A DNA stretch of 64,000 nt, taken from IMG/VR virus record IMGVR_UViG_3300035698_006183, positions 24,797-88,796 of that record. One strand, 5' to 3'. The translations under genes and the position numbers were made by a program. Positions 8,643 to 64,000 of this stretch are shown piece after piece. The notes below the pieces were generated by a model. The model was not told the DNA's origin. It saw only the letters and a list, made by a program, of their open reading frames with translations, and did not search any database. The stretch is from a virus. Numbering within the stretch: the first letter of the stretch is position 1; each line of letters opens with the position of its first letter.

Positions 8643-11387
8643 ATGCCAGCAGATATCAGATATTCAGTCGTCCGAGGAGCCACAACATTAGGCCCCTTCA
8701 CCAATACCAGTGAGAATATTCTCCGTAAAGGAGATGTTATCAACCTGGAATGCCCGAACATTGACCAGACCAGTTACTACTGGGTTCTGTCCTACAAGCC
8801 AGTTTCCTCTGGTGGGACTGAATCTACAGCAGCTCTGACTTCGGCTAATACACGGACAACAAGTTTCACCGCGGACTTTGACGGAGCCTATTTGGTTCAG
8901 TTGACAGTTAACCAAGGTGTAGAAGGTGAAGACACCCAGTTTATACGTGTCAGAGGATTGACGAAGTTCGTTAATCTAAGCCTGATTGCTGCTGGGGAGC
9001 GTTACAACCAGGATGGTCCCGTTCCTGTGGATGCTACTTCCCAAGGTTGGTCAGATTTCCTGAACAATAACCTTCAGAAAGTTCTGGCCATCACTCGTAG
9101 AAATGCCACTACAGGCCGTCAGCTTTATGTTGATGCTAATAGGCCACGAGGTTGGGAAGGTGCAGGGACTGGGGACATCGATGATAACCCTGCTAATGAC
9201 CCGACCAAACATGTTCATTTCCCAGGGACTGACCAGACCACTACAACTACCGAAGCCCAGACGGGAATCAATATCCCGACGGAGGGTGTGGGTGATTTCA
9301 GCACTATCCAGGATGCTATAGATTACGCTGTAGCAATGGACCCAATACCTTCGTTGAATAACCCTGTGTGGGTTATCGTGAAGCCTGGTTTGTATGTAGA
9401 GGATATAACATTCCACTCCTACGTTCATGTCCTATCTGAAACATCTTTTACCGAACTTAGTGGTTCAGCATTGATAGTTGGGGATGCAGAGGTTTTTGCT
9501 GTGGTTCGGACGTATTCTGTTATAGTTCAGTCTGAAACTTCTGCGGGTCATTCTTGGGAAGCACCTCATATGCCCTCGTTCGACGAGTGGGCACAACTTC
9601 TGGCTTTTTGGGAAAATTTTCCAGTAATTCTATCTTCCGGTATTTCTTTTGAAAACTGGTTAGAGAGTCCCGCAGGTAGCCCTCAACCTATGTTGAGTTT
9701 GACAGGTACAGGTTTACTGCTCTCCAGTTCTGATTTCATTCAGATGGGGTCTACTGCAACACAGGAAGCAGGGTCCCCTATATCTGTTGTGAACCCACAA
9801 CATGGTGTTGGTGACATTACCCAGAGAGATTGGTTCTTACTTTATTTGAAGGACTGTTTCTTAGTTAAAGCTCCTGTACAAGCATATGATGATGAAGACC
9901 CTATCATTATGATGGATTCAGCAGGGGCCGTTCAACTCTTAGGGCTTGTTCAGCTTTTGAATGCTGAGGATTCTATCAGGATTCCTGATGAAGCCTCAAT
10001 AGATGATGGGACAGGATTAGGCCCTAAAGCCGGAGATTGCTCTATCTCGGTAATTGGCAATTATGTGACTGGTGGGGAACTGGATGGTTCAACTTTTCTT
10101 AGAGGTGTTCCTGAAAGTTTGTCCATCAGTGATTCAAAGCTGGATATGGACATTATCTTTGATTCTGACATAGCAACCCCAAACATCAACTATGAACCTA
10201 CGGTTTATATTGGTGGTAATTCCAGTTTTGGTGGAAATCTTATCATCAATGATAGTATCTTTGACCCCATCGAGAGTGATGGGGCTGACATAGAAATAGG
10301 AGTAGTGGAAACTTCGGGTACTTACGAAGATAGTGATTACCGGCACCCTGTAGTGTTGACAGCAGCACCAGGGTTGGTGAAAACTTCTATCCGACCTCGG
10401 CATGGGGCATCTTATGGGATGCAGTATGATACTAGATATATCTCTCCTGCCTCTGGTCCCGCAGGTGACCCTGTATTATTCCATGAACAACAGTGGTGGC
10501 AATACGACCGACCATCATTCCAGAACTTTGCCGATATGATGCTCCAGTTATCATTGCCAATAGCTCCACCTAATCCAGGTGACCCTGATTATATAGACGA
10601 ACGCTCGTTCACTCCCACATTGGGATCGATGTATAAGGGTATCTTGAATTTAGGGGATGCAAGTTCAGCCCCTAGTGCTGGTGAAGGTTTCGGGCGGGCT
10701 ATTGATGTTGAGCTTCGAACATTTGGAACTTTAGAAGGATATTACCTCCCAGTTCAGATTCGACCTCCTGATGACTCTCCAACCGAAGGTTTTATAACTG
10801 ACCGTCGGTTACTTCGATTTGGGACAGGTAATGAAGATGCTGGTGGGACTTATGTCGATGTTGGTTGTGAAGCAAACGGAACCCTGAAAGTTTACGGTGA
10901 CGTTGAAGCTGACAATATTGGTCCTGCTCCTGCTGCTACTAGAGCAACGGAATTTGCTGAATGTATAGCTGATGCAACTCTCTGGCCTGGTGATTTAGGA
11001 TTCCCCGGCTCTCAAACTGTTATTGGTGGTCAAGACTATGATGTGGCTGCTGACACTTTGGTTTACGGTGTTCTCTGGGAACCTGGGGATAATTCTCCCC
11101 ACATTTACCTCCCTCGTTCCAGAACTGCTGGTGGTATTCCTGACCAATGGCCGAAAGAAGGTCAGATTGTTACAGTGAAAGACATCTCGGGTACTGTTGC
11201 AACAGGTGGTGGTGGAGGTCAACCTATTACAATCACGACCTCTCACCAAGTTGGTGTTATAACTGATGCCTTATTTGAAAGTGGTCCTGGAGATTACGTT
11301 ATGACCACTGCTGATTTTGAATCGGCAACTTTTGTTTACCATTATCGATCATCAACAGATATCGGTTACTGGTATAAGATAGACTGA
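8643..11387 (+). CDS. Tail fibre/spike-like protein (Ig/PKD-like N-terminus, beta-helix cap, fibre-type C-terminal domain)
   Basis: YYWVL..KP...SFTADFDGAYLVQLTV; GDFSTIQDAIDYA..IVKPGLYVEDI; C-terminal IYLP..GQIVTVKD..ATFVY..WY. Confidence 0.6.
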   Translation: MPADIRYSVVRGATTLGPFTNTSENILRKGDVINLECPNIDQTSYYWVLSYKPVSSGGTESTAALTSANTRTTSFTADFDGAYLVQLTVNQGVEGEDTQFIRVRGLTKFVNLSLIAAGERYNQDGPVPVDATSQGWSDFLNNNLQKVLAITRRNATTGRQLYVDANRPRGWEGAGTGDIDDNPANDPTKHVHFPGTDQTTTTTEAQTGINIPTEGVGDFSTIQDAIDYAVAMDPIPSLNNPVWVIVKPGLYVEDITFHSYVHVLSETSFTELSGSALIVGDAEVFAVVRTYSVIVQSETSAGHSWEAPHMPSFDEWAQLLAFWENFPVILSSGISFENWLESPAGSPQPMLSLTGTGLLLSSSDFIQMGSTATQEAGSPISVVNPQHGVGDITQRDWFLLYLKDCFLVKAPVQAYDDEDPIIMMDSAGAVQLLGLVQLLNAEDSIRIPDEASIDDGTGLGPKAGDCSISVIGNYVTGGELDGSTFLRGVPESLSISDSKLDMDIIFDSDIATPNINYEPTVYIGGNSSFGGNLIINDSIFDPIESDGADIEIGVVETSGTYEDSDYRHPVVLTAAPGLVKTSIRPRHGASYGMQYDTRYISPASGPAGDPVLFHEQQWWQYDRPSFQNFADMMLQLSLPIAPPNPGDPDYIDERSFTPTLGSMYKGILNLGDASSAPSAGEGFGRAIDVELRTFGTLEGYYLPVQIRPPDDSPTEGFITDRRLLRFGTGNEDAGGTYVDVGCEANGTLKVYGDVEADNIGPAPAATRATEFAECIADATLWPGDLGFPGSQTVIGGQDYDVAADTLVYGVLWEPGDNSPHIYLPRSRTAGGIPDQWPKEGQIVTVKDISGTVATGGGGGQPITITTSHQVGVITDALFESGPGDYVMTTADFESATFVYHYRSSTDIGYWYKID

Positions 11388-51069: not shown

Positions 51070-51995
51070 CAAAGACTGATTACCCATCTGGGGATGGATT
51101 GCCAGACTGCCCTGAATGCCGAGGTAGAGGTGTCGTACCCCTGACGAGAGAAGAACGCCCCCCAATGGCTATTGGGGAAATAACTCGAATTTGCAGTTGT
51201 GTGATGGTTCGAGATGTGATGCAAAACCTGGAACGAGGCTGGAAGGGCTTATCGAAAGCCAACCCTATCAAATCGTCACCATTGACCGGTAAACACACGG
51301 ACAACGTGATGATTACTGCTACATCTTTTAAATTGAAACAACACCTTCGACACATTGCAGCCCGAAAAGGACCACGGTGGAATTTCCTCGTGGTGTCAGA
51401 TGCAACTCTGATGGATGCTTGGCTGTCTAAAGGCTTGAATGTTTACGACCCCGACATTGCTGGGATTCGTGAAGAAGACCGTCGGAAAATGGAGAAATCT
51501 CCCATCGAGGCTCTGTCCGAGTTGGTGGAACATGCTGCTTTGCTGGTTGTCTGTCTGGGTGTGAAGGCAGCTCGAAATTCTGCCATGCCCGAAGTCATGT
51601 TGGAGACCCTGACTCTCAGGGACTTCCGAGACAAACCGACATGGATTGTTGACCAACCTGCCTACCCGCTGATGGAAGGACACATATCATATAGTGTTCA
51701 TGTAGGTTCTCAGATTGAAGACTGGGAGCACATTGCATTAGACCCCTATGCAGGAGTGTCTTCGATGGATATCGGGACGGCTGTGCCAGGTGAAACTGCA
51801 CAAGCTAACCTCCCAACACCTTCCAGAAGACTTCCGGGTAGTTGCATACCTCGACAGAAACTAACACCTCCTGACCCTGTTTCACAGACAGCAGCTCCTT
51901 CTCATGTAGTCGGGGAACTTGATGTGGATGAGGAAATTAGACGTATGGAAGAAAAAGAACGTAAAAACAAATGGAAGAAAGGAGGAAGACATTGA
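51066..51995 (+). CDS. DnaC/IstB-like helicase loader with Zn ribbon and degenerate P-loop
   Basis: CPECRGRG..CSC; LLVVCLG at the Walker B position; RDFRDKPTWI; directly upstream of DnaB. Confidence 0.55.
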   Translation: MTKTDYPSGDGLPDCPECRGRGVVPLTREERPPMAIGEITRICSCVMVRDVMQNLERGWKGLSKANPIKSSPLTGKHTDNVMITATSFKLKQHLRHIAARKGPRWNFLVVSDATLMDAWLSKGLNVYDPDIAGIREEDRRKMEKSPIEALSELVEHAALLVVCLGVKAARNSAMPEVMLETLTLRDFRDKPTWIVDQPAYPLMEGHISYSVHVGSQIEDWEHIALDPYAGVSSMDIGTAVPGETAQANLPTPSRRLPGSCIPRQKLTPPDPVSQTAAPSHVVGELDVDEEIRRMEEKERKNKWKKGGRH

Positions 51996-53638
51996 AAACA
52001 CTACTTCGTTCAACATTCATTGCAGCACCCAGTGACAATCCTGACCTGTATATACGAAATTACATCAAGCTCGATGATTCCTCTTTACAGTTTGACCTTC
52101 CTGAAGATGTGACCATCTGGGAATTTGTCAAACAGTTTGTCAGAGCTCATAACCATGTCCCTGACATCAGTACCTTACAAACTCACTTCTCCAGAATTGG
52201 AGAGGATACTGTTCTTGAACGGCTTCGAGTGTTAGAGAACCTTCCAGGCTTCTCTCAGGGTGATTTTGATACCCGACTGGGAGTTAAAGCTGAGGAACGT
52301 CGTGTCCGTGAAGTTACGGAACTGATGAAAGATGCCAGTACAATCTTGACAACAGGATTAGAGATCAAAAAAGGCAGAGAGAAAAAGATACTGAAGGGTC
52401 CTATGGACTCGGTTCATTACTTCTTGGAGAAAAGCCACAGTGTGGTAGCTCCAGTCACAGGCTCTCGTCTGTCTGGAGAAGTAACCCAAGATGGAGAAGA
52501 CTTCACCCGCCGGTATGAACGTGTTGAGGCCGACCCTCTGGCTGGAATCGGCCAACATACTGGATTAACTCAAATTGATGTTGCTACTAATGGTGCCAGA
52601 AAGTTCGAACTGTGGATTCACGCAGCGTTCACTGGCGGGATGAAGTCTACTTGGGTTTTGAACTGGTGTTACAATCAGGCAATCTACCACCTCCACTCCA
52701 GTCTGTTGTTCAGTCTGGAAATGCCCTATGAGCAATGCAGGAACCTTCTGTATGCCATTCACTCAAGCCATCCTAAGTTCAGGCTTATCAGATATTTCCT
52801 GGGCCTTCAATCGTCCCCCGTAGATACTGTAGGCTTGGAGTATGAGAATCTTCGTGATGGTACTTTGGACAGGTTCCATGACAATGCTAAACGATTCTTG
52901 TTCGATTACGTCGTACCTGATTTCAACGGCAAAGTTGTGGACGTGGATACTTGCCCCCTGACTGGGAACAAGTACCATGACCCAGTAACCAAAGAAGTCC
53001 TGAGCTGTACTGTGGACGAGATGGGCAAACCCTATCCGAAATCCAGTGAGTACGGGAAAATCCACATTGAAGTGGCTGACCCGAACAGGATGGACTTCAC
53101 GATGGATAATCTCAGGCAGAAGGCCGAGCTTATCTACTCCAAGAGTCCCTTCAGAATGATTGTCATTGATCATGTAAGTTTGCTTTCACCTCGTAAATGG
53201 GTGGCCAGCCGTACTGACAGAGATAATGAAATCATTCGTGATACGAAGAAACTGGCCATGTCGTTCAACAGAGGTGAGGGGATTGCTGTTGTGGCACTAT
53301 TCCAAATCTCTCGTGAGGGCCATAAGTCGGCTATGAAGATAAAAGAGAAGACAGGTTCAGCTCGGTATGAGTTGACAGCTCTCTCTTATGCCAATGAAGC
53401 TGAGAGGTCGGCAGATATCGTTACATCCTCCTGGATTGATGAGGACCTCATTGCTGCCAACAGGGTTCAGTTCCAGTGTTTAAAATCTCGTGATCAGAAA
53501 CCATTCGAGATGTTTTTGTCTCGTGTGGAATGGCCATGCCGTCGGATTCTGACATGTTTCGACATGCCGATGACCAGCACTCAGAATCAAGATGTTGGAG
53601 ACGAGGTAGACAAGCAGGCTGAATTGCTAGATATATGA
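51992..53638 (+). CDS. dnaB: Replicative DnaB-like SF4 helicase
   Basis: AAFTGGMKST, FSLEM, IVIDH, LFQISR, ERSADIV, KSRD; TTG start after GGAGG. Confidence 0.85.
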   Translation: MKTLLRSTFIAAPSDNPDLYIRNYIKLDDSSLQFDLPEDVTIWEFVKQFVRAHNHVPDISTLQTHFSRIGEDTVLERLRVLENLPGFSQGDFDTRLGVKAEERRVREVTELMKDASTILTTGLEIKKGREKKILKGPMDSVHYFLEKSHSVVAPVTGSRLSGEVTQDGEDFTRRYERVEADPLAGIGQHTGLTQIDVATNGARKFELWIHAAFTGGMKSTWVLNWCYNQAIYHLHSSLLFSLEMPYEQCRNLLYAIHSSHPKFRLIRYFLGLQSSPVDTVGLEYENLRDGTLDRFHDNAKRFLFDYVVPDFNGKVVDVDTCPLTGNKYHDPVTKEVLSCTVDEMGKPYPKSSEYGKIHIEVADPNRMDFTMDNLRQKAELIYSKSPFRMIVIDHVSLLSPRKWVASRTDRDNEIIRDTKKLAMSFNRGEGIAVVALFQISREGHKSAMKIKEKTGSARYELTALSYANEAERSADIVTSSWIDEDLIAANRVQFQCLKSRDQKPFEMFLSRVEWPCRRILTCFDMPMTSTQNQDVGDEVDKQAELLDI

Positions 53639-54852
53639 GAGCAATCTCTGTAGTCCGAAAACCAATGGAGTCAACAACTCCGATGAACTGTGTCCGATTC
53701 GGTACGGGAGCACTTAATATAGACCCGTGCCGAATCGGAACTCAGGAGAAAATCAAAGCGGGTGGGGCAGGTATGCTCCTATCCCACATCCGTGATGGAA
53801 AACCTGGGGAAGGTTCCGATTACAAACAGAATCCTGGAGGGCGGTGGCCGTCCAATGTCATCTTAAACCACCCAGAATCCTGTACCCCTGGGTATTGTGT
53901 ATCAGGATGCCCGATTCCTCAGATGGATGCTGATAGCCTTCAAGGTGGAATCCATGCTGCGGGTAATAAAAAGAAGGCTAAGACAACGGAGAAAGGTCAT
54001 ACTTTTAACTTTGCAGCCTTCGACCACAACCCTGATTACTATGGGGACTCTGGTGGGGCATCTCGGTTTTTCAAGTGTGTGAAAGAAGATAAACTCATGA
54101 ACATACCACAGGAACTATTAGATTACCTTATAACACTCATATCTACACCGACTATGGCAGCTCTGTACAAGGATGACATCAGTACGTGGGTAGTCGGTCT
54201 GCATCCCGACAACTCCTGGCCGGGTCTTGTAGCCTATGGGCAGCCTTCAGAAGAACAGGCTGCCGACCTGAAGAGAGTTCTGATGCCTGGGGCACACTTA
54301 CTACTGATTGCTCCTGATTCGGAGCCTACAGGCCACACAGGGACGTGTCGAGTTGAGGATGCAGGCTTTGAGATTCGTGATGCAATCCTGTGGGTTCAAG
54401 AAGCTGGCCATTTCCATTATGTCCCCAAGGCTTCACGTTCAGAACGAGAGGCTGGGTGTTATGCTATTGGCCCTCAGAAACGTGATGAGTCTCGTCAAGA
54501 AGGCGACCCTGGAGGTGACAATCCTCGGAATAGAGGGGTGAACCCTGTCAAGAACTTCCACCCTACAGTAAAGCCTATCAAGTTGATGGAACGGTTGTTA
54601 TCAGGTGTGCCTGTTAAAGACGGACCCATCCTTGACCCGTTTATGGGAAGTGGTTCTACTGGGATTGCCTGCCTACAAACTGGCCATGATTTCATTGGTG
54701 TGGATAGAGAAAAAGATTACGTCGGGATTTCAACATCTCGAATCAGACACTGGGATAGTGAACAAGGTTACATCCACCGACAGGTGGAATCAGATTATAA
54801 ACCAGAAGTTATCGAACAAGAGCCTGTAGATTTATGGGACATGGAGGACTAA
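53635..54852 (+). CDS. N6A/N4C (beta-class) DNA methyltransferase-like protein with SAM-binding motif but no DPPY
   Basis: HPTVKP and LDPFMGSGSTG are present; the expected TDPPYG reads GLVAYG; N-terminal RKP..GTGALNID..GRWPSN..GGASRFF module. Confidence 0.8.
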   Translation: MRAISVVRKPMESTTPMNCVRFGTGALNIDPCRIGTQEKIKAGGAGMLLSHIRDGKPGEGSDYKQNPGGRWPSNVILNHPESCTPGYCVSGCPIPQMDADSLQGGIHAAGNKKKAKTTEKGHTFNFAAFDHNPDYYGDSGGASRFFKCVKEDKLMNIPQELLDYLITLISTPTMAALYKDDISTWVVGLHPDNSWPGLVAYGQPSEEQAADLKRVLMPGAHLLLIAPDSEPTGHTGTCRVEDAGFEIRDAILWVQEAGHFHYVPKASRSEREAGCYAIGPQKRDESRQEGDPGGDNPRNRGVNPVKNFHPTVKPIKLMERLLSGVPVKDGPILDPFMGSGSTGIACLQTGHDFIGVDREKDYVGISTSRIRHWDSEQGYIHRQVESDYKPEVIEQEPVDLWDMED

Positions 54853-55662
54853 ATGCCAAACAAAGCCATTGGAATCGTTGGGGTTGATTACTGTGGTTCC
54901 ACTCTGCTGAATTATATTTGGGATGGTATCCCTGGTGTATTTGGTGCCGGTGAAACTCATTGGGTTTTAGATAAACCTGAAATCAATTGCCGACAATGCA
55001 ATCGTCCTCGATGCTTGGTATGGAAACCAGAGATTCGAGAGTATTTACCTCAAGCAGCAGACAATGGGAAATGGTGGGATGCACTTCGAGAAATGGCCAA
55101 GGCTGAAATCGTTGTGTCTTCTGACAAGAAAGCTGTCCATTACGAACAGTTTGGAGTTCCTTCCCGACTTGTTTTCAGTTTCAAGGAGCCACTGGCTCAT
55201 ATTTTCAGCCGAGCTGCTGTCAAGTTGGGGAAAAGTGATGCTGCTGTTAACATTGAAATTAACAATGACACATTGGATGAGGCTATCACTTGGTGGGTAG
55301 ATGAAACCAATACCACTCTTGATTGGCTTATGGAACAGGATTCAGAGTTCAAGGTTGTCAAGATGGAGTTGTTAGTGGATAAACCTGCTGCTCACCTGAA
55401 AGCCTTCTGTAAATGGGCTGGTGTGAAATATGATGCTACGGCACTAACATTCTGGCGGAAACGTCACCATTATATCGGTGGTAATCATGCCCTAACTCGT
55501 CTGAAACGCTCATACTATTTCTTCAGGAAGCTCAAGAAAGACGAACGCTGGAAAGATTGTTTCACACAGGAACAAGTGGATAGAATCCAGAGTGCTGATG
55601 ATGTGAAAGCTGTCACAAAACGTCTGGAAGCTCTCTTAACCCCTGAAAAGTTACTGGCTTAG
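54853..55662 (+). CDS. PAPS-dependent sulfotransferase-family protein
   Basis: 5'-PSB loop GVDYCGSTLL, GE, SSDK, MELLVDKP..L..FCKWAGV; CxxC-x4-C. Confidence 0.75.
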   Translation: MPNKAIGIVGVDYCGSTLLNYIWDGIPGVFGAGETHWVLDKPEINCRQCNRPRCLVWKPEIREYLPQAADNGKWWDALREMAKAEIVVSSDKKAVHYEQFGVPSRLVFSFKEPLAHIFSRAAVKLGKSDAAVNIEINNDTLDEAITWWVDETNTTLDWLMEQDSEFKVVKMELLVDKPAAHLKAFCKWAGVKYDATALTFWRKRHHYIGGNHALTRLKRSYYFFRKLKKDERWKDCFTQEQVDRIQSADDVKAVTKRLEALLTPEKLLA

Positions 55663-55685
55663 AAGGTCAGAGTTTCGAGTTGTTG
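55656..55685 (+). promoter_or_regulatory. Phage bipartite promoter-like motif, copy 5
   Basis: GGCTTAG aaggtcagagttt CGAGTTGTTG; its TAG is also the sulfotransferase stop codon. Confidence 0.8.
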
Positions 55686-55701
55686 GAATAGGAGAGGTTA
55701 G

Positions 55702-56343
55702 ATGATCAGTAAAAAATATACAGATTCTGTAATGCAAACTACTGTTAAAAGAAAGGCTCAGAAAGCTATTGCACTGGCCACACTCGCCACACTCCAAATG
55801 AAGGACAGACTCAGTAAAAGTCAGTTAGAAGACTATGCTATGGACTTGATTGAAAAGCCCGAGGATGAGTTAGATACCCTTTTAGAAGAATTCAAAGTCA
55901 GTCCTAAAGACAAGACTAACCAACATATATTGAAAAAATGCCCGAATGATGGGTGTTGTAGTGATGGGCTTCAATTGGAAGTTCATGGTGGCCCGGATTT
56001 CGATTATGTGCAGTGTAACTCCTGTGGAACTCGGGGTCCTGTGTTTGATGGACACCCCGAAGATGCCATCAGAGCTTGGAACAACCTCCCACGACCATCA
56101 AAAGTTCAGAGGTTGCAGCAGTGGGTTGAAGACCTGCAATCAGGTATGTACGTCAATTGTGTCTACTGTGGCCATCGTTATGGTCCGAAAGAAGATACTC
56201 CTGTTGCAATGGCTGAAGTGTTGAAAGAACATATTCAACATTGTCCTGACCATCCGTTGAGCCATGCCAACCAGGAAATTACAGAACTGAAGACTACGAT
56301 AACAGAGATGCAGTCTTCAATAGACCGTTTGAAAAGGAAATAA
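55702..56343 (+). CDS. Multi-domain protein with Lar (restriction alleviation)-like Zn finger and a second Zn finger
   Basis: LKKCP..C..YVQCNSCGTRGP..EDAIRAWN; CVYCGH..HIQHC. Confidence 0.65.
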   Translation: MISKKYTDSVMQTTVKRKAQKAIALATLATLQMKDRLSKSQLEDYAMDLIEKPEDELDTLLEEFKVSPKDKTNQHILKKCPNDGCCSDGLQLEVHGGPDFDYVQCNSCGTRGPVFDGHPEDAIRAWNNLPRPSKVQRLQQWVEDLQSGMYVNCVYCGHRYGPKEDTPVAMAEVLKEHIQHCPDHPLSHANQEITELKTTITEMQSSIDRLKRK

Positions 56344-56344
56344 A

Positions 56345-56828
56345 ATGGCAGAGAACACAGAAGCAGAGAAAAAATACAAAGGTGAAGTAATGATTCACCA
56401 GACCGATGTTTTCAACCAGATGCAGATTGTTCTGGATGAGATAGAACACCGACAGGCTACTCATGACAGGTCCAAGCTCAGTGAGGATGAATTCCCGACA
56501 TATGCTCGGGTCATTCCGAAGATGAAGGGTCTGCCTTTCGGCTCTCCTGAAGCCAAGGCTATTGTGAAAGAACTCGGCCCTGCTCTCCAGCACCATTACG
56601 AGAACAACCGACATCACCCTGAACATTTCGAGAATGGTATCGCTGGTATGAATCTTCTTGATATGATTGAGATGGTGTGTGACTGGAAAGCTGTTTCCGA
56701 AGCTAAAGGGAACGACTTGAAAAACAGGTATGGTTGAAGTTCTGTTCCCGAAACACAAAATAACAGAGCCCTTGGCAACTATCCTGTTGAATACAGCGGA
56801 CATGCTGGAAAAAGGTGATGAAGAATGA
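56345..56828 (+). pseudogene. DUF5662-family (HD-like) protein with a +1 frameshift at the A5 run 56720-56724
   Basis: HDRSK, HHYENNRHHPEHF and EMVCDW are present. The +1 frame continues TGMVEVLFPKHKITEPLATILLNT..* to the TGA overlapping the next ATG. Confidence 0.7.
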
Positions 56829-57064
56829 AAGGCATTAACGTACAAGTAAAAGAAGGTCTCATTGACATCAATATTGACACCAAAGTTGCCATTGATGTCA
56901 AAGCTATGATGAAAATGCAACGTCAAGGAGGCTGGGACCAAGGTTTGAATCAAGTAGTGTCCAGACTTTTAGACCCGATGCTTTTGGAAATCCAACAGGA
57001 ACTTGAACGTACTCTCCATCAGGCAATCATCCGTGGAGAGATTGACTATAAGGCAGCTATCTGA
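56825..57064 (+). CDS. Hypothetical protein (79 aa)
   Basis: ATGA-coupled operon ORF. Confidence 0.6.
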   Translation: MKGINVQVKEGLIDINIDTKVAIDVKAMMKMQRQGGWDQGLNQVVSRLLDPMLLEIQQELERTLHQAIIRGEIDYKAAI

Positions 57065-57345
57065 TGACGGAACCACACTCAGAAATTATGGTAGATGGGG
57101 AGTTTGTAAAACGAGAAGTTATCACGGAAATCCCTGCTGAGTTTGACACAAGTAGTTTGTTGTTCGATAAGCTCTTGAAGATGCTCAATAAAGCATGGCC
57201 TCTTGATGATGGTGTTGTGGAATTCAAAATAGAAGACCGTGAGATTGTAGCCTACCATAAGACTCTGTTAAATGAAGCTGCTTTGAGTTCCTTTGAGAAT
57301 TATGCCCGAGGGTGGATTGGTTGTTACCAACACCTGAGTAAGTAG
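57064..57345 (+). CDS. Hypothetical protein (93 aa)
   Basis: TGATG coupling. Confidence 0.6.
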   Translation: MTEPHSEIMVDGEFVKREVITEIPAEFDTSSLLFDKLLKMLNKAWPLDDGVVEFKIEDREIVAYHKTLLNEAALSSFENYARGWIGCYQHLSK

Positions 57346-57356
57346 AGAGAAGTGAA

Positions 57357-57557
57357 ATGAAGCATCTTTACATATGTGCTTTCTGTGGAGAAAAATACAC
57401 GGAATACGAAGCAGCATTACTGCCTCAGAGTAACAGTACAGCACCGGCACCTATGTGTTGTGGTTTCTCAATAAATCATCAAACCTGGGAAGACGAGGGA
57501 TTGTCTGCCCTTATAAACGATGCTGCAACAGAGGCTTTAGGGGAGAATGACAAGTGA
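57357..57557 (+). CDS. Small Zn-ribbon protein
   Basis: CAFCG...MCCG. Confidence 0.55.
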   Translation: MKHLYICAFCGEKYTEYEAALLPQSNSTAPAPMCCGFSINHQTWEDEGLSALINDAATEALGENDK

Positions 57558-58264
57558 CTCAGAAACTGAACATACATCAGTCCGACTGTAAGATTTTCAT
57601 GCAAGCCCTTGCAGAGAACTCCCTCGGTGGGATTGTCTGTGACCCTCCATATGGCCTCTCATTCATGAATAAAGAATGGGATGACCTCGATCAATGGAAA
57701 ACAGGTGCTGCCATGAGCAGTCCTGGCATTGGCCAACGTGAGATAGAATGGCCAGCCTACGGAGGAACTCAACCTTTCGGTGGAGCCAACCCAACATGTA
57801 AAACCTGTGGTGGACGGCTTCGGGGTGTTAAGAAATGCACCTGTGACGAACCAGAATGGCTCGTAGACGGTGAACCCGTCGGAGATGGAGCCAATGTATC
57901 AGTTAACATCTCCTTGGACAACGTACACGCTCAGCAGGCTTGGCATCTGAATTGGCTGAAAGAAGCCTTTCGGGTATTAAAACCAGGAGCAGTGATTAAA
58001 GCCTTCGGCGGAACCAGAACTTTCCATAGGTTGGCAGCTGCAATGGAGCAGGCAGGATTCGTAGATATTCAGATGGATGCCTGGATATACGGCAGCGGTT
58101 TCCCGAAGTCCTTGAACATCTCCAAAGCACTCCGTCGGAAGATGGATTCTGTGAACCATACGTTAGTCCCTACGGATGAGGCTTTACTTGAAAGATTCGA
58201 AGGTTACGGCACAGCTTTGAAGCCAGCTTGGGAACCGTTCATTATTGGGAGGAAACCTGAATGA
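57554..58264 (+). CDS. N6A/N4C DNA methyltransferase, N-terminal catalytic half only (DPPY present, no FxGxG)
   Basis: CDPPYGLSFM..WD, RVLKPG, WIYGSGFPKS; ends at GTALKPAWEPFIIGRKPE*. Confidence 0.85.
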   Translation: MTQKLNIHQSDCKIFMQALAENSLGGIVCDPPYGLSFMNKEWDDLDQWKTGAAMSSPGIGQREIEWPAYGGTQPFGGANPTCKTCGGRLRGVKKCTCDEPEWLVDGEPVGDGANVSVNISLDNVHAQQAWHLNWLKEAFRVLKPGAVIKAFGGTRTFHRLAAAMEQAGFVDIQMDAWIYGSGFPKSLNISKALRRKMDSVNHTLVPTDEALLERFEGYGTALKPAWEPFIIGRKPE

Positions 58265-58836
58265 GTGACACATTAAAACGTATTCAAAAATACCGAGGAT
58301 ATCCTAATCCCCCTCTGGCAGGACCCTTGACAATATCTCTAATGGTTGATGCTTTTGCATTTATTGAAAGGTTTGATATACGAGTGGAGAAGATTGTTGG
58401 ATCAGGGCTCTTACATGAATTGATTCGGCAAACAAAAGAAGCAGGAGTTTATTCAGAAAGTAAACCCACTGGTAATTTATGGGGTGCTGACTTTGAGTTT
58501 GCAGATGTGTCTGATAAAAAAATATATCTTCTTGGGGAGTTAGCTTCGGAAGAGAAAACTTTTATAAATGAACATTGTACAATAAGTTGTATTGATACAG
58601 AGAGGACTTCAAAAGTTATTCAACAGAATACAATAGCTTTCTTGAAGACTTCAGAAGGCCAGGCTTTAGAATTAGCTTGGGAAAAATCTTGTCACCCTAT
58701 GGAACTCATCTGTCAAGACTGTGTGCCTAAAAACGAGTCTTGCTGGGAACCTCTTCTTGGGAAAGGTCATTGTCAGCGTTGTGGGAAAATTGCCCCTTGG
58801 TTTGGAGATATGGGGGGTAAGTCAAATGACAGTTAA
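58261..58836 (+). CDS. Hypothetical protein with capsid-A-domain-like N-terminal module and C-terminal Zn ribbon
   Basis: LTISLMVDAFAFIERFDIRVEKIV..NLWGADFEFADVSDKKIYLLGE; CQDC..CQRC. Confidence 0.55.
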   Translation: MSDTLKRIQKYRGYPNPPLAGPLTISLMVDAFAFIERFDIRVEKIVGSGLLHELIRQTKEAGVYSESKPTGNLWGADFEFADVSDKKIYLLGELASEEKTFINEHCTISCIDTERTSKVIQQNTIAFLKTSEGQALELAWEKSCHPMELICQDCVPKNESCWEPLLGKGHCQRCGKIAPWFGDMGGKSNDS

Positions 58837-59392
58837 GGTTATAAGTTATCAGGATTTCCGTCCAGTAGATGCCATAGACACGACATCTCGTAGCCGAACG
58901 TGGTCTCGTGGTTTGAGTCCCTTCTTCGTTGGACCTATTCCTTTGTGGGATGGTTCTTCGTCGGTGAACATGGAAAATGCTTGGCAATTCTCTAAAGTAT
59001 ATCCTGAACACGTTGGACCAGATGGGCTACCCTCAGATGTCTGGAAAGAATGGTCCCAGACAGGATGGGCAGATGAGCGGGCACACCGTTACCCAATGGG
59101 AAAAGGTGTAGCTCCTTTGTATTCCTGGTGGGGTGGTGAGAAGCTGTCCTATGTGGATGCCCGTAAAAAGATATATTTCCCGTTATATGCAAAAGCTGTG
59201 GTATTAACGGAGGCTTTTCAGACATTACAGAGAATATACGAGGCAGTAGGGTCAGTGACGTTGGTTGATTTCGACGGATATGACCACCGAGCATTAGGAT
59301 TGGATTGGAAAGGTGTGTTGAACAACACAAACAAACCGATGGGACATGCCTTTGTTATCGGGTATTTGCTGGAACAGTTGGGGACAACATGA
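58826..59392 (+). CDS. DUF6939-like (NADAR-related) protein
   Basis: LSPFFVGP, MENAWQFSKVY, YVDARKKIY, LVDFD and MGHAFV; start reassigned to ATG 58826. Confidence 0.6.
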   Translation: MTVKVISYQDFRPVDAIDTTSRSRTWSRGLSPFFVGPIPLWDGSSSVNMENAWQFSKVYPEHVGPDGLPSDVWKEWSQTGWADERAHRYPMGKGVAPLYSWWGGEKLSYVDARKKIYFPLYAKAVVLTEAFQTLQRIYEAVGSVTLVDFDGYDHRALGLDWKGVLNNTNKPMGHAFVIGYLLEQLGTT

Positions 59393-59874
59393 TTTTAGCT
59401 ATCACTGGCCACAGACCCAATAAGTTGGGAGGTTACGACCCGAACCCGACCAGCAAACAAGTTCAGAAAGCAATAGAACGAGCTCTTTTACTTCTAAAAC
59501 CTGATAAACTTATCACAGGAATGGCACTGGGAGTTGACCAATGGGCAGCTGCTTTGTGCATTCGACATAGCATTCCTTTTATTGCAGCCGTTCCTTGTAT
59601 GGAACATGAGATTAAGTGGAACGATAAATCCCAGGAGCTTTACTTCAGGTTGTTGAATAAAGCTGAGGAAGTGGTGGTTGTGACACAGACCCCATATAAT
59701 TCGAAGGTGATGCAGAAACGGAATGTCTGGATGGTAGACCATGCGGACACCCTTTTAGCTGTGTGGGATGGAAGCAAGAGTGGCACGGCCAATTGTATAG
59801 CCTCTGCTCGGAAACAAGGAAAGAAACTCTATCGAATCACCCCAGGTGATGATCTTTTGAAAGGAATGCCATGA
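59389..59874 (+). CDS. YspA/DUF1273-type SLOG family protein
   Basis: AITGHRP, ITGMALGVDQWAA, RNVWMVD, AVWDGSKSGTANC. Confidence 0.88.
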   Translation: MILAITGHRPNKLGGYDPNPTSKQVQKAIERALLLLKPDKLITGMALGVDQWAAALCIRHSIPFIAAVPCMEHEIKWNDKSQELYFRLLNKAEEVVVVTQTPYNSKVMQKRNVWMVDHADTLLAVWDGSKSGTANCIASARKQGKKLYRITPGDDLLKGMP

Positions 59875-60353
59875 GTGACGACAAAAAACCCCGAGACCCT
59901 GTAATCAAAAAAGATAATGGTTGGTATTTTTCCGACGAAATATGGTCAGACACCATTGGACCTTTCGAGACTGAAGCTATGGCCAGACACCACTTAGAAG
60001 AATATGCCAAGTATCTGGATAAGGGTCCACCTGAAACTCAGTGTGCTACGATGGCAGAGTGGATTAACATCCTGGCTGATGCCCATGAAGAAAGTAAAAA
60101 GGTTACTCTAGCAGATGACCCTCCTAATCGTAGGTTAGGGTTCAGAGTTAAAGGTGCTATTTTTTCAGTTACTTTGCCTATGGTTCAAAGTCGAGGATGG
60201 AATACCCCAGAAGGTCTTGAAGCTCTGAAACGTATTGATTTCGATGACCATTCTTTTGGACACTCTATTCAGAGTCCTGGTGGTAGAGAAGCTCTTTTCA
60301 CAAAACTAGCCCACGTAAAAAGGAAATATTGCAGAGGAGGGGACAGGAAATGA
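59871..60353 (+). CDS. Hypothetical protein (160 aa)
   Basis: ATGA coupling; GWYFSDE.W..IGPFET motif. Confidence 0.6.
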   Translation: MSDDKKPRDPVIKKDNGWYFSDEIWSDTIGPFETEAMARHHLEEYAKYLDKGPPETQCATMAEWINILADAHEESKKVTLADDPPNRRLGFRVKGAIFSVTLPMVQSRGWNTPEGLEALKRIDFDDHSFGHSIQSPGGREALFTKLAHVKRKYCRGGDRK

Positions 60354-61150
60354 CAAGACTTGTAATGATGGGACACTGGACGACGTTCAACCGTATGTTG
60401 ACCATCAAAGATGAAATCGTTGGCCTCCCAAAATACCCTGGGGAATCAGATGAGAAACTTTTGGCTTTGATGCCGTGGGCAAAAGACCGAGCAGATGACC
60501 CCATCTCAATCTCTACGGCTATGAGGCCACTCCTGTCTTTGGGTGTTGATAAAGTTTTCCTACTTCTAAAAGTGAATGGACAACCTTACCAATACCAAGA
60601 AGGGCTGGAATATGGCCTTCGGGTGATGAAGCATGGTGCTCCTGATTATACTTCATCACATGAGCTCCTTCAAAATGCCTTAGATGACTTTAAAGATACA
60701 GGCGAAGAAAACCTTAAACTCACCCCTTTCAATGTTGCATCCAGTTGTCACACCACAATACAAGCCCGAATGAAACAGCAACGGAGAGAAGAACAGTGGG
60801 TTGATGAGGAGGACTGGCAGCTTCGAGAGTTCCTAAACGTGTTTGGGATGTTTCCTGCCGATGATGCAACTATGGCCCGTACCAAAGACTGGGAGGGCAC
60901 TCCTGAACAGGGTAAGCTAACAAGAGAACTGGTGTTTGAGGCTTTCTTCAAAGTACAGAAACCTACAACTATCATAACCTCAGAAGCTACAAGAGGGTCT
61001 CTTATTCATATGCTGGTGGGTCCTGATAACCATGAAGACTTGGGTGCAAATAATCTTTGTGGCGCTCACATGGAAGTTGGTGATGTCCCTGATGATCAGA
61101 TTTTTTTCATTGGTGAACATGACGTACAAAGGTTGGATATCACAGAATGA
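60350..61150 (+). CDS. Hypothetical protein with C-terminal module paralogous to the N-terminus of 58261..58836
   Basis: KLTRELVFEAFFKV..NLCGAHMEVGDVPDDQIFFIGE. Confidence 0.55.
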   Translation: MTRLVMMGHWTTFNRMLTIKDEIVGLPKYPGESDEKLLALMPWAKDRADDPISISTAMRPLLSLGVDKVFLLLKVNGQPYQYQEGLEYGLRVMKHGAPDYTSSHELLQNALDDFKDTGEENLKLTPFNVASSCHTTIQARMKQQRREEQWVDEEDWQLREFLNVFGMFPADDATMARTKDWEGTPEQGKLTRELVFEAFFKVQKPTTIITSEATRGSLIHMLVGPDNHEDLGANNLCGAHMEVGDVPDDQIFFIGEHDVQRLDITE

Positions 61151-62742
61151 TAGTTATTACTGTAGCTCGGAAACCATTTCCGAAGACACTGGTGGATAAC
61201 ATCCACCAGAATGGGACGGGTGCATTAAACATTGATGCCAGCCGTATAGCTCCCACTGGGGAATGGCTGGGCGGTGGTGATGAACATGCAGCTACCATAG
61301 ATAAAAAACGAAGTGACTGGAGCCAGCCGTGGATGCACCGACCTGAAGATGCCCAACGTCATGCCGACATGATGAAAGAGGACATCCGACGACATTCATT
61401 GATGGGTAGGTTCCCTTCAAACGTCATCTTCGAGCATAAGCCTGAGTGTCTCTCCTTGGGAACGGCCAAAGTCAAAGGTTCCCCGCAAGTTAACTTCGAC
61501 AAACTCCCTGTAGAAGAACGAAAAGCATCAGGAGAACAGCATGGCCAAATTTGGGGTCGTGGTCGTGGGATTGGTGTGAAGGGTGTCAGTTACACAGTAG
61601 GCTTTGGTGATGACTCTGGGATGGAATCTTTCCAGTCCTGGGAGTGTGTGGGTGATTGTCCTGTACGGCAGCTTGACGTACAGAGTGGTAGTTCCAAATC
61701 TACGGGTGGCCGGACGGCCAACATCTCCACTACTTCTGTTATCTTTGGTAATGGCCAAGGTCTGGGTCAAGATATTGATGCTGATGATGTACGAGGAGAC
61801 CCTGGTTTCGGTGACTTAGGTGGAGCTTCTCGGTATTTCAAACAAATAAAACCGTCTGGTTTAATAGTCCTGTCGTTATTCGACGGACTATCCTGTGGCC
61901 AGATTGCTTTGGAACGTGCCGGTGTGAAAGTATCTCGGTATTATGCTTCCGAAATTGATAAATATGCCATGCAGGTAACTCAGAAAAACTACCCTGAGAC
62001 AATACAGCTTGGTGATGCCACAAAAATCCAATCAGAAGAACTTCCGAAGATTGACCTGTTGATTGGTGGTTCCCCCTGCCAAGGGTTCAGTTTTGCTGGT
62101 AATGGCTTGAACTTTGAAGACCCTCGGAGTAAGTTGTTCTTTGAATTTGTTCGTCTTTTGAGAGAGTTGAAGCCTAAATACTTTCTCTTGGAAAACGTGA
62201 AGATGAAGAAAGAGTATGAGTATGCTATCACTGAATTACTCGGAGTAAGTTGTGTTCGAATAAACTCGTCGTTAGTTTCAGCTCAGAATAGGCAACGATT
62301 GTACTGGACAAACATCCCTGGAGATAGTGACTATGTAATTGGAAACTATATTGGTCAGCCCGAAGATAAAGGCATCCTCTTGAAGGACCTTCTTGAATCT
62401 GGGGTAGTAGATAGAGACAAATCTTATTGTTTGGATGCTAGTTACTACAAAGGTGGTAACTGGGAACAGTATATGAGAAAGAAACGACGGCAGGTTGTAT
62501 TCCCTGACCTTGATGCTTTGAAGCTGGCTCAGGAGTTATATAAACCTGAGAAGGGTGCTACCACAAAAGAAGATGTGAACCGTGTGAAGACTCGGCTCTT
62601 AACACCTCTGGAGTGTGAGAGAATACAAACTGTTCCTGATGGGTACACAGAAGGTGCCAGTAACACTCAGCGGTACAAGATGCTTGGAAATGGATGGACT
62701 GTGGACGTTATCGTTTACATTCTGAAAAATATATTGAGGTAG
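61147..62742 (+). CDS. C5-cytosine DNA methyltransferase fused to an N-terminal amino-MTase 'middle' module
   Basis: N-terminus ARKP..GTGALNID..GRFPSN..GGASRYFK; C-terminus LSLFDGLSCG, GGSPCQ, LENV, QNR, LGNGW. Confidence 0.88.
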   Translation: MIVITVARKPFPKTLVDNIHQNGTGALNIDASRIAPTGEWLGGGDEHAATIDKKRSDWSQPWMHRPEDAQRHADMMKEDIRRHSLMGRFPSNVIFEHKPECLSLGTAKVKGSPQVNFDKLPVEERKASGEQHGQIWGRGRGIGVKGVSYTVGFGDDSGMESFQSWECVGDCPVRQLDVQSGSSKSTGGRTANISTTSVIFGNGQGLGQDIDADDVRGDPGFGDLGGASRYFKQIKPSGLIVLSLFDGLSCGQIALERAGVKVSRYYASEIDKYAMQVTQKNYPETIQLGDATKIQSEELPKIDLLIGGSPCQGFSFAGNGLNFEDPRSKLFFEFVRLLRELKPKYFLLENVKMKKEYEYAITELLGVSCVRINSSLVSAQNRQRLYWTNIPGDSDYVIGNYIGQPEDKGILLKDLLESGVVDRDKSYCLDASYYKGGNWEQYMRKKRRQVVFPDLDALKLAQELYKPEKGATTKEDVNRVKTRLLTPLECERIQTVPDGYTEGASNTQRYKMLGNGWTVDVIVYILKNILR

Positions 62743-62745
62743 AGA

Positions 62746-63672
62746 ATGAACGTATTGTCGTTATTTGATGGGATGTCTTGTGGGCAGGTTGCCCTTAATA
62801 GACTGGGCATCAAGTACGGCAAGTATTATGCTTCGGAGATAGATAAATTTGCCATCCAGATAGCCCGGAAGAATTATCCTAAAACTATTCATCTTGGAGA
62901 TGTTACTCAGGTAAAGAATCTCCCACAAATAGATTTATTACTCGGTGGTTCTCCCTGTCAAGGCTTCAGTTTTGCTGGGAAGCAGTTGAATTTCAAAGAC
63001 CCTCGTAGCAAACTGTTCTTCGAGTTCGTCAGACTTCTGAAAGAATGTAAACCGAAATACTTCCTCCTGGAAAACGTGAGGATGAAGAAAGAACATCAAG
63101 CCATCATTACTGAGATGCTTGGTGTGAACTGTGTTTGTATTAACTCATCCTTAGTTTCAGCTCAGAACCGAAACAGGTTGTACTGGACGAATATCCCTGG
63201 AGATGGGGATTATGTTATTGGGAACTACATAGAGCAACCGGACAATAAGAAAATATATCTGAAGGACATAGTTGAACCTGGCAGGTTGAAAGAAAAAACC
63301 TACACCAGCAACCAGAACTTTCAGAAAAGTTTCACGGCAGACGGCACCCCTATTGTTTTCGACAGGTGTTTTAAAATAGGTGATGCTGACATGAATACTG
63401 ACTATGAGGCTATCAAACGTGTGTACTCAGTACATGGCAAATCACCCAGTCTGTTGACTATGCAGGGTGGGAACAGACAACCTAAGATAGCGGTAGATGA
63501 GAAGTATTACAGAATGCTGACTCCGTTAGAGTGTGAACGATTACAGACTCTGCCTGATGGTTATACCGAAGGTGTGAGTAACAGCCAACGATACAAAATG
63601 ATAGGGAATGGCTGGACTGTGGATGTCATAACCCACATTCTGAAGAATATACCCGAGGCAGATATCACATGA
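62746..63672 (+). CDS. C5-cytosine DNA methyltransferase
   Basis: LSLFDGMSCG, GGSPCQGFS, LENV, QNRNR, IGNGW. Confidence 0.93.
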   Translation: MNVLSLFDGMSCGQVALNRLGIKYGKYYASEIDKFAIQIARKNYPKTIHLGDVTQVKNLPQIDLLLGGSPCQGFSFAGKQLNFKDPRSKLFFEFVRLLKECKPKYFLLENVRMKKEHQAIITEMLGVNCVCINSSLVSAQNRNRLYWTNIPGDGDYVIGNYIEQPDNKKIYLKDIVEPGRLKEKTYTSNQNFQKSFTADGTPIVFDRCFKIGDADMNTDYEAIKRVYSVHGKSPSLLTMQGGNRQPKIAVDEKYYRMLTPLECERLQTLPDGYTEGVSNSQRYKMIGNGWTVDVITHILKNIPEADIT

Positions 63673-64000
63673 ACGTATTGTCCTTGTTCGACGGGATGTC
63701 CTGTGGACAGATTGCCCTCAACAGGCTTGGCATTAAGTATGAGAACTACTTTGCCAGTGAGGTGGATAAATATGCCATCCAAATCACCCAGAAAAACTAC
63801 CCTGACACCATTCAATTAGGTGATGTCACCCAAGTATTTGCCAAGGATTTACCAAAGATTGATCTTCTTATTGGAGGTTCACCCTGCCAAGGATTCAGCT
63901 TTGCGGGTAAAGGGTTGAATTTTAAAGACTCTCGAAGTAAACTGTTCTTCGAATTCGTTAGACTCCTGAAAGAATGTAAGCCGAAGTATTTCCTCCTTGA
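63669..64000 (+). CDS. C5-cytosine DNA methyltransferase, 3'-partial (not in the ORF track)
   Basis: ATGA overlap; manual translation MNVLSLFDGMSCGQIALNRLG...GGSPCQGFSFAG...KPKYFLL runs off the window. Confidence 0.92.
   Translation, partial: MNVLSLFDGMSCGQIALNRLGIKYENYFASEVDKYAIQITQKNYPDTIQLGDVTQVFAKDLPKIDLLIGGSPCQGFSFAGKGLNFKDSRSKLFFEFVRLLKECKPKYFLL

Follow-up and report, generated by a model that had tools for sequence, protein, structure and literature searches.

We analyzed a 64-kb stretch of viral DNA (the window), which makes up the last part of an 88,796-base record in IMG/VR, with respect to three open reading frames (ORFs), here termed P1, P2, and P3. The original prediction held that an amino-methyltransferase is split into pieces at this locus, with a catalytic half (A) in one gene, a middle module (B) together with a degenerate catalytic half (A') and the half that binds S-adenosylmethionine (SAM or AdoMet) (C) in another, and a second copy of B placed in front of a C5 cytosine methyltransferase in a third. 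All three ORFs were recovered on the + strand (Table 1).

From 51971 to 64000 every gene is located on the + strand and the genes are tightly packed. The start of P1 overlaps the stop of the DnaB-like gene (53635/53638), and the start of the next ORF abuts the stop of P1 (54852/54853). P2 overlaps both of its neighbours (57554/57557 and 58261/58264), while P3 overlaps its upstream ORF (61147/61150). The coordinates thus bear out the predicted coupling of the three genes to their neighbours. A distance of 2.7 kb, occupied by five other ORFs, separates P1 from P2, and the order of the modules is B-A'-C, then A.

Table 1. Positions of P1, P2, P3, their modules, and flanking genes in the window.
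Feature	Position	Strand	Remarks
DnaB-like helicase gene	51971..53638	+	PF03796, E = 7e-15; synteny anchor directly upstream of P1
P1 (body subunit, B1-A'-C)	53635..54852	+	405 amino acids (aa)
B1 module of P1	53635..54084	+	N-terminal strand and middle module at the position of the target recognition domain (TRD)
A' of P1	54097..54420	+	DPPY-less paralog of the catalytic half, strands beta4'-beta6'
C of P1	54421..54852	+	SAM-binding half
P2 (catalytic half A, motifs IV-VIII)	57554..58264	+	236 aa, GTG start
Catalytic motif IV DPPY of P2	57641..57652	+	Residues 30-33
Four-Cys insertion of P2	57797..57844	+	C82, C85, C95, C97; between motifs IV and V
P3 (B2-C5 fusion)	61147..62742	+	531 aa
B2 module of P3	61147..61854	+	Second middle module, long subtype
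C5 cytosine methyltransferase domain of P3	61855..62742	+	PF00145, TIGR00675
Two further tandem C5 methyltransferase genes	62746-63672 and 63669 onward	+	PF00145, 178 bits

P2 was found to carry the catalytic half alone. Its motifs run up to GFPKS and GTALKPAWEPFIIGRKPE and then stop, the protein ending in WEPFIIGRKPE directly before the stop codon. The Pfam family PF01555 matches P2 at profile positions 24-89 of 221 only (33.3 bits, gathering cut-off 26.7), and the FxGxG sequence of SAM motif I is absent from P2. The translation and the profile match therefore agree with the original prediction of a gene with DPPY, no SAM motif, and an end at RKPE. Among the best 120 database homologs of P2 (129-413 aa), sorted with module profiles, 117 consist of A only and 3 of A and B. 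Most of the A-only homologs (104 of 117) end no more than 12 residues from the PAWEP..VGRKP motif. DPPY is present in 91 of the 117 and the remaining 26 begin just downstream of it. In an alignment of 51 A-only proteins, made from near-full-length matches picked from the 120 listed homologs, DPPY and 14 further positions are invariant. The consensus of the Cys insertion, NPTCxxCGGRLRGxKKCxC, is kept in most A-only homologs and is absent from short ones (P0086, P0096, P0099); the insertion probably forms a zinc ribbon. Within deposited phage genomes the closest proteins to P2 are one-chain mycobacteriophage methylases with at most 38.5% identity.

P1 holds the parts that P2 lacks. Residues 206-366 match PF01555 profile positions 33-219 in one stretch (68.1 bits, same cut-off) with the DPPY end missing, and no DPPY-like motif was found in P1. 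The C half carries NFHPTVKP at residues 307-314 and FMGSGST, of which motif I FMGSG occupies residues 336-340 (nt 54640-54654). Sequence matches of P1 residues 300-371 in the PDB were M1.HpyAVI (chain named DpnA), M.BceJIV, and CcrM, with E = 8e-12 to 9e-9. The predicted make-up of P1, B followed by a degenerate A and a C half with the SAM motif, was thereby confirmed. Motif IV and motif I, as held in one polypeptide by members of PF01555, occur together in neither P1 nor P2, while the pair holds both. Judged by sequence, P1 and P2 make up a split form of the PF01555 family and not a standard member. The best 120 homologs of P1 comprise 95 proteins with B, A', and C and 25 with A' and C without B. 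Any [DNS]PP[YFW] motif was seen in 1 of these 120, and [FW]xGSG in 119. For many homologs of P1 and P2 the encoding contig has a length of 300-540 kb. The catalytic and SAM motifs are invariant in the aligned homologs, the P1 alignment having 60 rows of near-full-length matches picked from the 120 listed.

The fold model of P1 allowed A' to be compared with A. A' was modeled with strands at residues 195-201, 216-225, and 246-254 and helices at residues 206-215 and 234-242. Since residues 195-201 (PGLVAYG) form the counterpart of beta4, the position equivalent to DPPY is approximately QPSE (202-205). DPPY is thus lost from A' as predicted, only not at PDNS, where the lost site had been placed. 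With an A'-specific query, full-length A' was found in 7 of 80 viral loci kept, which represent six distinct sequences or contigs (L086 and L087 are identical), and none of the seven has DPPY in A'. Among 50,697 deposited phage records none covers at least 80% of A'. The motifs APDxEPTGHTG and EDAGFEIRD, which are specific to A', are highly conserved.

Both B copies open with M-x-x-I-x-V-x-RKP and have an H..C..C..C segment in common, and the alignment of the two upholds the shared start strand and cluster described in the original prediction. B1 begins MRAISVVRKP and has the anchor motifs GTGALNID, GRWPSN, and GGASRFF; it scores 179 bits against our own B profile, and the B2 of P3 scores 118 bits. 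At E ≤ 0.01 neither P1 residues 1-205 nor P3 residues 1-240 gave a match to any Pfam family, and judged by sequence B does not belong to the Type I HsdS family (Pfam Methylase_S). An alignment of 16 B modules, chosen by eye from the loci, has 13 invariant residues (R8, K9, P10, G25, N28, R33, G69, R70, P72, N74, G140, R144, and F146). The variable loops of B1 are residues 39-65 and 111-134, where the predicted local distance difference test (pLDDT) is below 50.

A search with B2 in a library of 1.84 billion representatives gave 3,940 proteins at E ≤ 1e-3, of which 1,240 reach E ≤ 1e-10. The best 150 of the 3,940 were found to comprise 73 with A, B, and C, 60 with B standing alone, 7 with B, A', and C, 5 with A and B, 3 with B and C, and 2 with B and a C5 domain. 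The stand-alone B proteins among them have 137-432 aa, mostly 200-230, and 13 proteins contain two or three B copies in tandem (P0363, for instance, is B-B-B-A'-C). The B-only genes of modular loci encode proteins that start like MIVITVARKPL and end like GGASRFFKQVKR at the stop codon, and the A-only proteins end in EPFLVGRKP. In beta-class enzymes the target-recognition region lies between motif VIII and motif X, and this is the position of B in the one-chain enzymes. Because B combines invariant anchors with variable middles, stands alone in 60 of the best 150 representatives, and occurs as tandem B-B(-B) proteins, we regard it as a specificity module; from its sequences it is probably the exchangeable, DNA-reading module of the enzyme family. 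Modeled alone with the 16-row alignment B reached a mean pLDDT of 46, while the same residues within P1 reach 86-97. We conclude from these models that B would require the core to become ordered. The proposal that B acts as a docking tag stood in part, as the modeled contacts put its invariant motifs on the GTALKPAWEP segment of A (see below), but B is also the variable, TRD-position module of one-chain enzymes and is more than a docking tag.

One viral contig (L031) has seven B-only genes (L031:5124-7917 and 10977-11366). The first 33 or so residues of their products are near-identical (MI[VI]HVLRKPL[IV]GTVAANALQHGCGALNI) and the middles are divergent. These genes look like cassettes that could recombine.

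The second B copy was located to P3 residues 1-236 by BLASTP against P1 (E = 3e-8). It begins MIVITVARKP, ends GGASRYFKQIKP, and is in frame with a C5 domain at residues 241-529 (PF00145, 166 bits, cut-off 22; TIGR00675, 158 bits, cut-off 100.65), which is the arrangement originally predicted. The translation contains the C5 motifs LFDGLSCG, SPCQGFS, LENV, QNRQR, and GNGW, and P3 belongs to the C5 family. Over its full length B2 is 38-42% identical to B within one-chain A-B-C and B-A'-C proteins, and 34% identical to stand-alone B. All 13 family-invariant B residues are kept in B2. Across five ortholog clusters the N-terminal strand of B2, MIVITVARKPFPKTL, hardly varies, although it has no A or A' sheet in cis to join, and B2 is 78-83% identical in relatives compared to 68% for the C5 part. 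From the kept strand, the kept anchors, and the conservation above that of the C5 part it follows that B2 has some function.

At the fusion junction the natural C-terminus of B (GGASRYFKQIKP) runs straight into the C5 enzyme at its natural N-terminus (LSLFDG). The linkers of orthologs vary from approximately 5 to 17 residues, the old start Met is still visible in P0245 (GMNILSLFDG), and relatives have a B-only gene immediately upstream of, and overlapping, the B-C5 gene. These features point to a stop-loss fusion of neighbouring genes, and P3 most likely arose when a B-only gene lost its stop and ran on into the gene heading the C5 array, as far as can be read from the sequences. The B-C5 fusion was seen only in this clade, in 5 of the 120 matches listed (127 passed E ≤ 0.001).

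The presence of the pieces in other viruses was assessed with a profile of A-only proteins, which led to 79 loci on viral contigs; an exact-word search with P2 alone gave nothing. The common one-chain phage enzyme that the original prediction took as its starting point is real, as 73 of the 79 loci encode A-B-C in one ORF. Three loci are modular, two are cut by contig ends, and one (L008) has an A-B ORF and a separate C ORF. All three A-only loci also hold an A'-C gene. Likewise, all six other contigs with full-length A' have an A-type ORF within 10 kb, although the one in L085 (206 aa, DPPY not seen) is atypical. An A-only gene ending in ..GRKP and a DPPY-less A'-C on one contig were found in the window, L005, L012, L031, L084, L086/L087, and L163-L165, L085 being the atypical case. 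The layouts differ. L005 has one A'-C followed by six A-only and six B-only genes, directly after an intein-laden DnaB gene, and so shares with the window the order of DnaB and then the A'-C body. L031 has six B-only genes, one A'-C (with an intein), two A-only genes, and one further B, and the order in L012 is A, B-A'-C, B.

Four metagenome contigs (L162-L165) are close relatives, with A 63-87% identical to that of the window and the pieces in the order of the window where the contigs reach. L163 and L165 have all three pieces (B-A'-C ... A ... B-C5) plus B-only genes, L162 has A and B-C5, and L164 has B-A'-C and A. The B-C5 fusion is present in all three relatives that reach the region. The ratio of nonsynonymous to synonymous substitutions (dN/dS, method of Nei and Gojobori, NG86) between the window and the relatives was 0.15 for B1, 0.06 for C, 0.085 for whole P1, 0.10 for A, and 0.07-0.15 for B2, which are rough values as dS is saturated (1.0 to 4.0; undefined for A' against L163 and for the C5 part against L162). 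In every module dN is far below dS. The relatives thus lack intact single genes and their pieces do not evolve neutrally, the reverse of what had been named as refuting the original prediction. Because the families are conserved, the pieces co-occur, the relatives keep the layout, and dN is much lower than dS, the pieces are not decayed fragments, and in this respect the original argument against random decay was borne out.

The A gene is broken right after DPPY(G) in two of the close relatives, by a 7-nt insert (frameshift, no stop) in L163 (L163:6447-6660) and by a 9-nt insert (TAA plus 6 nt) in L165 (L165:10001-10210). The last triplet of the insert (AAT in L163, AGC in L165) has the same last two bases as the preceding codon (TAT and GGC, respectively). 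The copy in the window is intact, without this insert.

An AlphaFold2 model of P1, made with the 60-row alignment, had a mean pLDDT of 80.5 and a predicted template modeling score (pTM) of 0.72, with the N-terminal strand (residues 2-8) at pLDDT 97. Foldseek with whole P1 found TTHA0409, CcrM, M1.HpyAVI, and M.BceJIV at E ~1e-4, with a root mean square deviation (rmsd) of approximately 20 Å and template modeling (TM) scores of 0.15-0.3, which in terms of the model would reflect a mismatch in domain arrangement and not a new fold. With VIA-align, residues 262-389 superposed on the SAM-binding halves of CcrM, RsrI, and BceJIV (Z 5.7-6.2, rmsd 1.6-2.7, 72-88 residues), and A' (residues 150-255) on other class-I methyltransferases (Z ~5). 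In neither program did A' and C of the P1 monomer model superpose together on one solved enzyme. As the two only match separately, A' is not placed beside beta1 of C in the way of the catalytic half of a one-chain fold. The modeled separate lobes fit a C half that is left open for a partner.

The complex of P1 and P2 was modeled with ESMFold2, using the 60-row alignment for P1 and the 51-row alignment for P2, in three runs with three controls. The interface score (ipSAE) was 0.88, 0.89, and 0.89, compared to 0.01 for the best control. The pass mark is one attained by 58 of 80 complexes of solved structure and by 2 of 110 mismatched pairs, counts that are rough here, with our own alignments used. 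The runs agreed in at least 88% of contacts and the partner pLDDT was at least 73. Since solved one-chain relatives exist, this outcome of the complex prediction, which had been proposed as a check, shows that the halves fit together like a one-chain fold and not that they bind; likeness alone could give such a pass.

In the model P1 residues 333-334, in the strand before FMGSG (beta1), contact P2 residues 27-28, in the strand before DPPY (beta4), and P1 353-354 contact P2 5-6. Residues 27-29 and 72-75 of P1 (GTGALNID and GRWPSN) contact P2 218-226 (GTALKPAW), and P1 234-238, in a helix of A', contact the homologous helix of A at P2 158-162. The modeled interface is enriched in invariant residues, with 7 of 13 in B (26 of 150 residues at the interface, p = 0.002) and 13 of 18 in A (79 of 236 residues at the interface, p = 0.0006). 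In the model, two chains would thus reconstitute the fold of the one-chain enzymes, and A' would form an additional lobe packed against A.

Altogether, we consider it likely, with a probability of about 0.7, that P1 and P2 are two subunits of one beta-class methyltransferase assembling in trans. P3 is an ordinary long-subtype B module fused to an intact C5 enzyme. P1 and P2 together would be one beta-class (N6-adenine or N4-cytosine) DNA methyltransferase, an enzyme that is a single A-B-C chain in most phages. P2 would give strands beta4-beta7 and the DPPY catalytic loop, and P1 the AdoMet-binding strands beta1-beta3 (motifs X and I-III). Beta4 of P2 is predicted to pair with beta1 of P1, so that the Rossmann-type fold and the active site would extend across two chains. 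B1 would clamp the conserved C-terminal GTALKPAWEP segment of P2 via the invariant GTGALNID and GRWPSN. The DNA sequence is probably read by the variable loops of B1, given the position of B in one-chain enzymes and its variability. A' would pack helix-to-helix on P2 and probably provides the body with an internal scaffold or a pseudo-dimer partner. The B2-C5 fusion, once formed, appears to have been kept under selection, and P3 may be an alternative reading module on the P2/P1 core that tethers the C5 enzyme there. The likely purpose would be methylation of the phage DNA at several motifs and thereby escape from host restriction. The original proposal that the catalytic and SAM-binding halves complement in trans is well supported in silico, by co-occurrence, purifying selection, and the complex model with beta4 of A against beta1 of C.

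Several points weigh against this reading. Of the four close relatives, L163 and L165 have interrupted A copies that would be inactive unless recoded. We infer assembly and activity of P1 and P2 from sequence and models, and the complex score may come from likeness to solved one-chain enzymes, the halves of a split fold tending to pass. Saturation of dS makes the estimates of selection rough. The fold of B and its DNA contacts are putative, B alone modeling poorly, and the role assigned to A' is one that we infer. P1 has B1 in cis, which makes access for B2, or for the extra B-only proteins of the relatives, questionable. Finally, the sequence gives the amino-methyl type only as N6-methyladenine (m6A) or N4-methylcytosine (m4C).

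The strongest alternative accepts that P1 and P2 complement one another and makes P3 independent, B2 either acting in cis for the C5 enzyme or riding along after an accidental stop-loss fusion. We hold this to be a serious competitor, if on balance doubtful. The natural-end junction, the variable linkers, and the old start codon in P0245 would all be expected from an accidental fusion, as would the B-only gene that immediately precedes and overlaps B-C5 in relatives. The fusion is moreover rare (2 of the best 150 B representatives and 5 of the 120 matches listed) and P1 has its own B in cis. On the other hand, all of the invariant B residues are kept in B2, seven of them being at the modeled contact with A, and the N-terminal strand MIVITVARKPFPKTL is nearly invariant though it has no sheet in cis to join. 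B2 is also more conserved than the C5 part (dN/dS 0.07-0.15), and B alone has no confident predicted fold. Docking of B2 on the P2/P1 core, giving an alternative specificity and tethering of the C5 enzyme, is a tentative suggestion that we do not rate above the independent action of P3. The full scheme, where one core (P2 and the C half of P1) takes exchangeable reading modules, B2 in this clade carries the C5 cargo to the same DNA and sets a second amino-methylation specificity, and a single complex writes m6A or m4C as well as 5-methylcytosine, appears rather unlikely as a whole. The original claim that B unites amino- and C5-methyltransferases in one complex found only partial support, as stand-alone B genes occur in arrays of up to seven, B occurs in tandem, and the C5 fusion is confined to close relatives.

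A second alternative is that P1 is autonomous, as a SAM-binding regulator or a non-DPPY methyltransferase, and that P2 has another partner. The high conservation of APDxEPTGHTG and EDAGFEIRD suggests a function of its own for A', and A' and C are modeled as separate lobes. However, a PF01555 search of the 88.8-kb record found only P1 and P2 and no other SAM-binding half of the family, A' is always accompanied by a nearby A-type ORF in the six other contigs, and the complex model sets beta4 of P2 against beta1 of P1. We therefore find this alternative improbable.

It is highly improbable that read-through, frameshifting, or split-intein trans-splicing joins the pieces into one chain: homologs of A, C, and B-C5 commonly contain inteins and short coding gaps follow DPPY in relatives, but P1 and P2 are 2.7 kb apart with five ORFs between them in the order B-A'-C then A, no intein half was found at the end of P2 or at the B starts and no Hint or intein family in P1, P2, or P3, and the GRKP strand is present at the end of A and again at the start of B, which a simple junction would not duplicate. 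That the pieces are decaying or inert remnants of one-chain genes broken by rearrangement, as the lack of a SAM motif in P2 and of DPPY in P1 and the interrupted A gene of two relatives might suggest, is already contradicted by the same break points in hundreds of diverged proteins, the invariant catalytic and SAM motifs, dN much lower than dS in every module, synteny kept in four relatives, and intact ORFs that overlap their neighbours, and can hardly be upheld.

The two-subunit enzyme proposed for P1 and P2 has several known counterparts. The one-chain phage beta-class methylases (PF01555, phrog_67 type) have the same motif order, DPPY ... GFPKS ... ALKPAxEP..ARKP, GTGxLNID ... GRWPxN ... 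GGxSRFF, HPTxKP ... FxGSG. One of them, Mycobacterium phage BigMau gp61 (431 aa), aligns with 99% of P2 at 38% identity and covers PF01555 positions 1-220. These enzymes are single polypeptides without A', whereas the chain in the window is cut after the ..RKP strand, with this strand on both sides of the cut, and has a DPPY-less duplicate catalytic half between B and C. The SAM half of the solved CcrM (6PBD), M.BceJIV (8URK/9C3S/9C3U), M.RsrI (1EG2), and M1.HpyAVI (5HEK/5HFJ) resembles the C half of P1 (E = 8e-12 to 6e-3), and none of the four covers module B.

Natural methyltransferases that need two separately encoded polypeptides are known for the C5 class, according to PMC3404938 on M.AquI and M.EcoHK31I. 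In these the division into two fixed subunits lies in or behind the variable region or at motif IX, and they have neither exchangeable reading modules nor a dead duplicate half. The split enzyme of the window is, in contrast, of the amino class and cut between the catalytic and the SAM-binding half-folds, and the C5 domains in the window are complete in one chain and not of the two-polypeptide type. A full-text literature search, with subscription journals, REBASE, and supplements outside its reach, returned M.AquI, M.EcoHK31I, and engineered splits only, and no description of a split beta-class enzyme.

The C5 methyltransferases of the Bacillus phages SPR, phi3T, and rho11s have several tandem TRDs on one catalytic core and protect several motifs. 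Their TRDs are located inside one C5 enzyme, whereas the modules discussed here are mostly separate proteins that would serve a split amino-methyltransferase, tandem B-B(-B) proteins also existing. In Type I systems one catalytic core takes several specificities; HsdM has a complete catalytic domain of another permutation class, and HsdS a fold of its own that comprises two TRDs and coiled coils. The system in the window differs in that the catalytic fold itself is also split and in that B has no Pfam match. Type I restriction-modification resembles it in having a distinct S subunit that recognizes DNA, as stated in 10.1101/2023.12.13.571470.

The chemistry and fold of PF01555 enzymes are known, and what is new is the architecture, with the fold split between half-domains, a body with a dead duplicate half, and middle modules that are separate and multiple. 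If P1 and P2 assemble as modeled, they would represent a natural amino-methyltransferase with a Rossmann fold made from two proteins and a reading module that is separate and swappable. This would explain how, with few genes, very large phages shield their DNA from many restriction systems, and programmable methylation would gain a natural scaffold. A direct experimental handle is given by the B-C5 fusion on whether B is a reading module only or also a recruiter of other enzymes.

The record has a CheckV completeness of 17%, from which the phage genome is probably approximately 0.5 Mb. Four other records with the same system have CheckV completeness values of 40% (213 kb), 42% (223 kb), 9% (41 kb), and 24% (126 kb). 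A search for near-identical DNA in deposited phages found none.

Among the genes surrounding the three pieces, the ORF that abuts the stop of P1 (54853-55662) has a weak match to a sulfotransferase family (PF13469, E = 8e-4, 20.1 bits, cut-off 27) and no match in PHROG or NCBIfam. Between P2 and P3, 58721-59392 encodes a DUF6939 protein (37.7 bits) and 59305-59874 a YpsA/SLOG-DprA-like protein (72 bits), while no family match was obtained for the ORFs 58261-58836 and 60329-61150. The C5 array behind P3 has at least two more genes, the last of which is cut at the contig end, and the array may be longer.

Inteins are frequent in the homologs. Those in C interrupt NFHP|TVKP and those in A interrupt GS|GFPKS, and others are present in the B-C5 fusion (PF14890/PF13403) and the adjacent DnaB (L031:7917-9752, L084:9365-11923, L164:81-2405, L165:5643-7862, L005:4452-8609, P0042, P0006, P0243, and P0245). 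The copies in the window are intein-free.

Two further ORF arrangements were observed. Gene product gp151 of Mycobacterium phage LittleE (L168:1501-2673, 390 aa, annotated 'DNA methyltransferase') is encoded two genes downstream of a DnaB-like helicase and has A and B, while the SAM-binding half was not detected in it (Pfam profile positions 26-107 only; no match to our own C profile). This protein, from a cultured phage, may be a further split or incomplete form. In L008 the A-B ORF (L008:4176-5078, 301 aa) has stops on both sides and the separate ORF of 400 aa (L008:5544-6743) has the C half at its end, which may represent a different split point (A-B followed by C).

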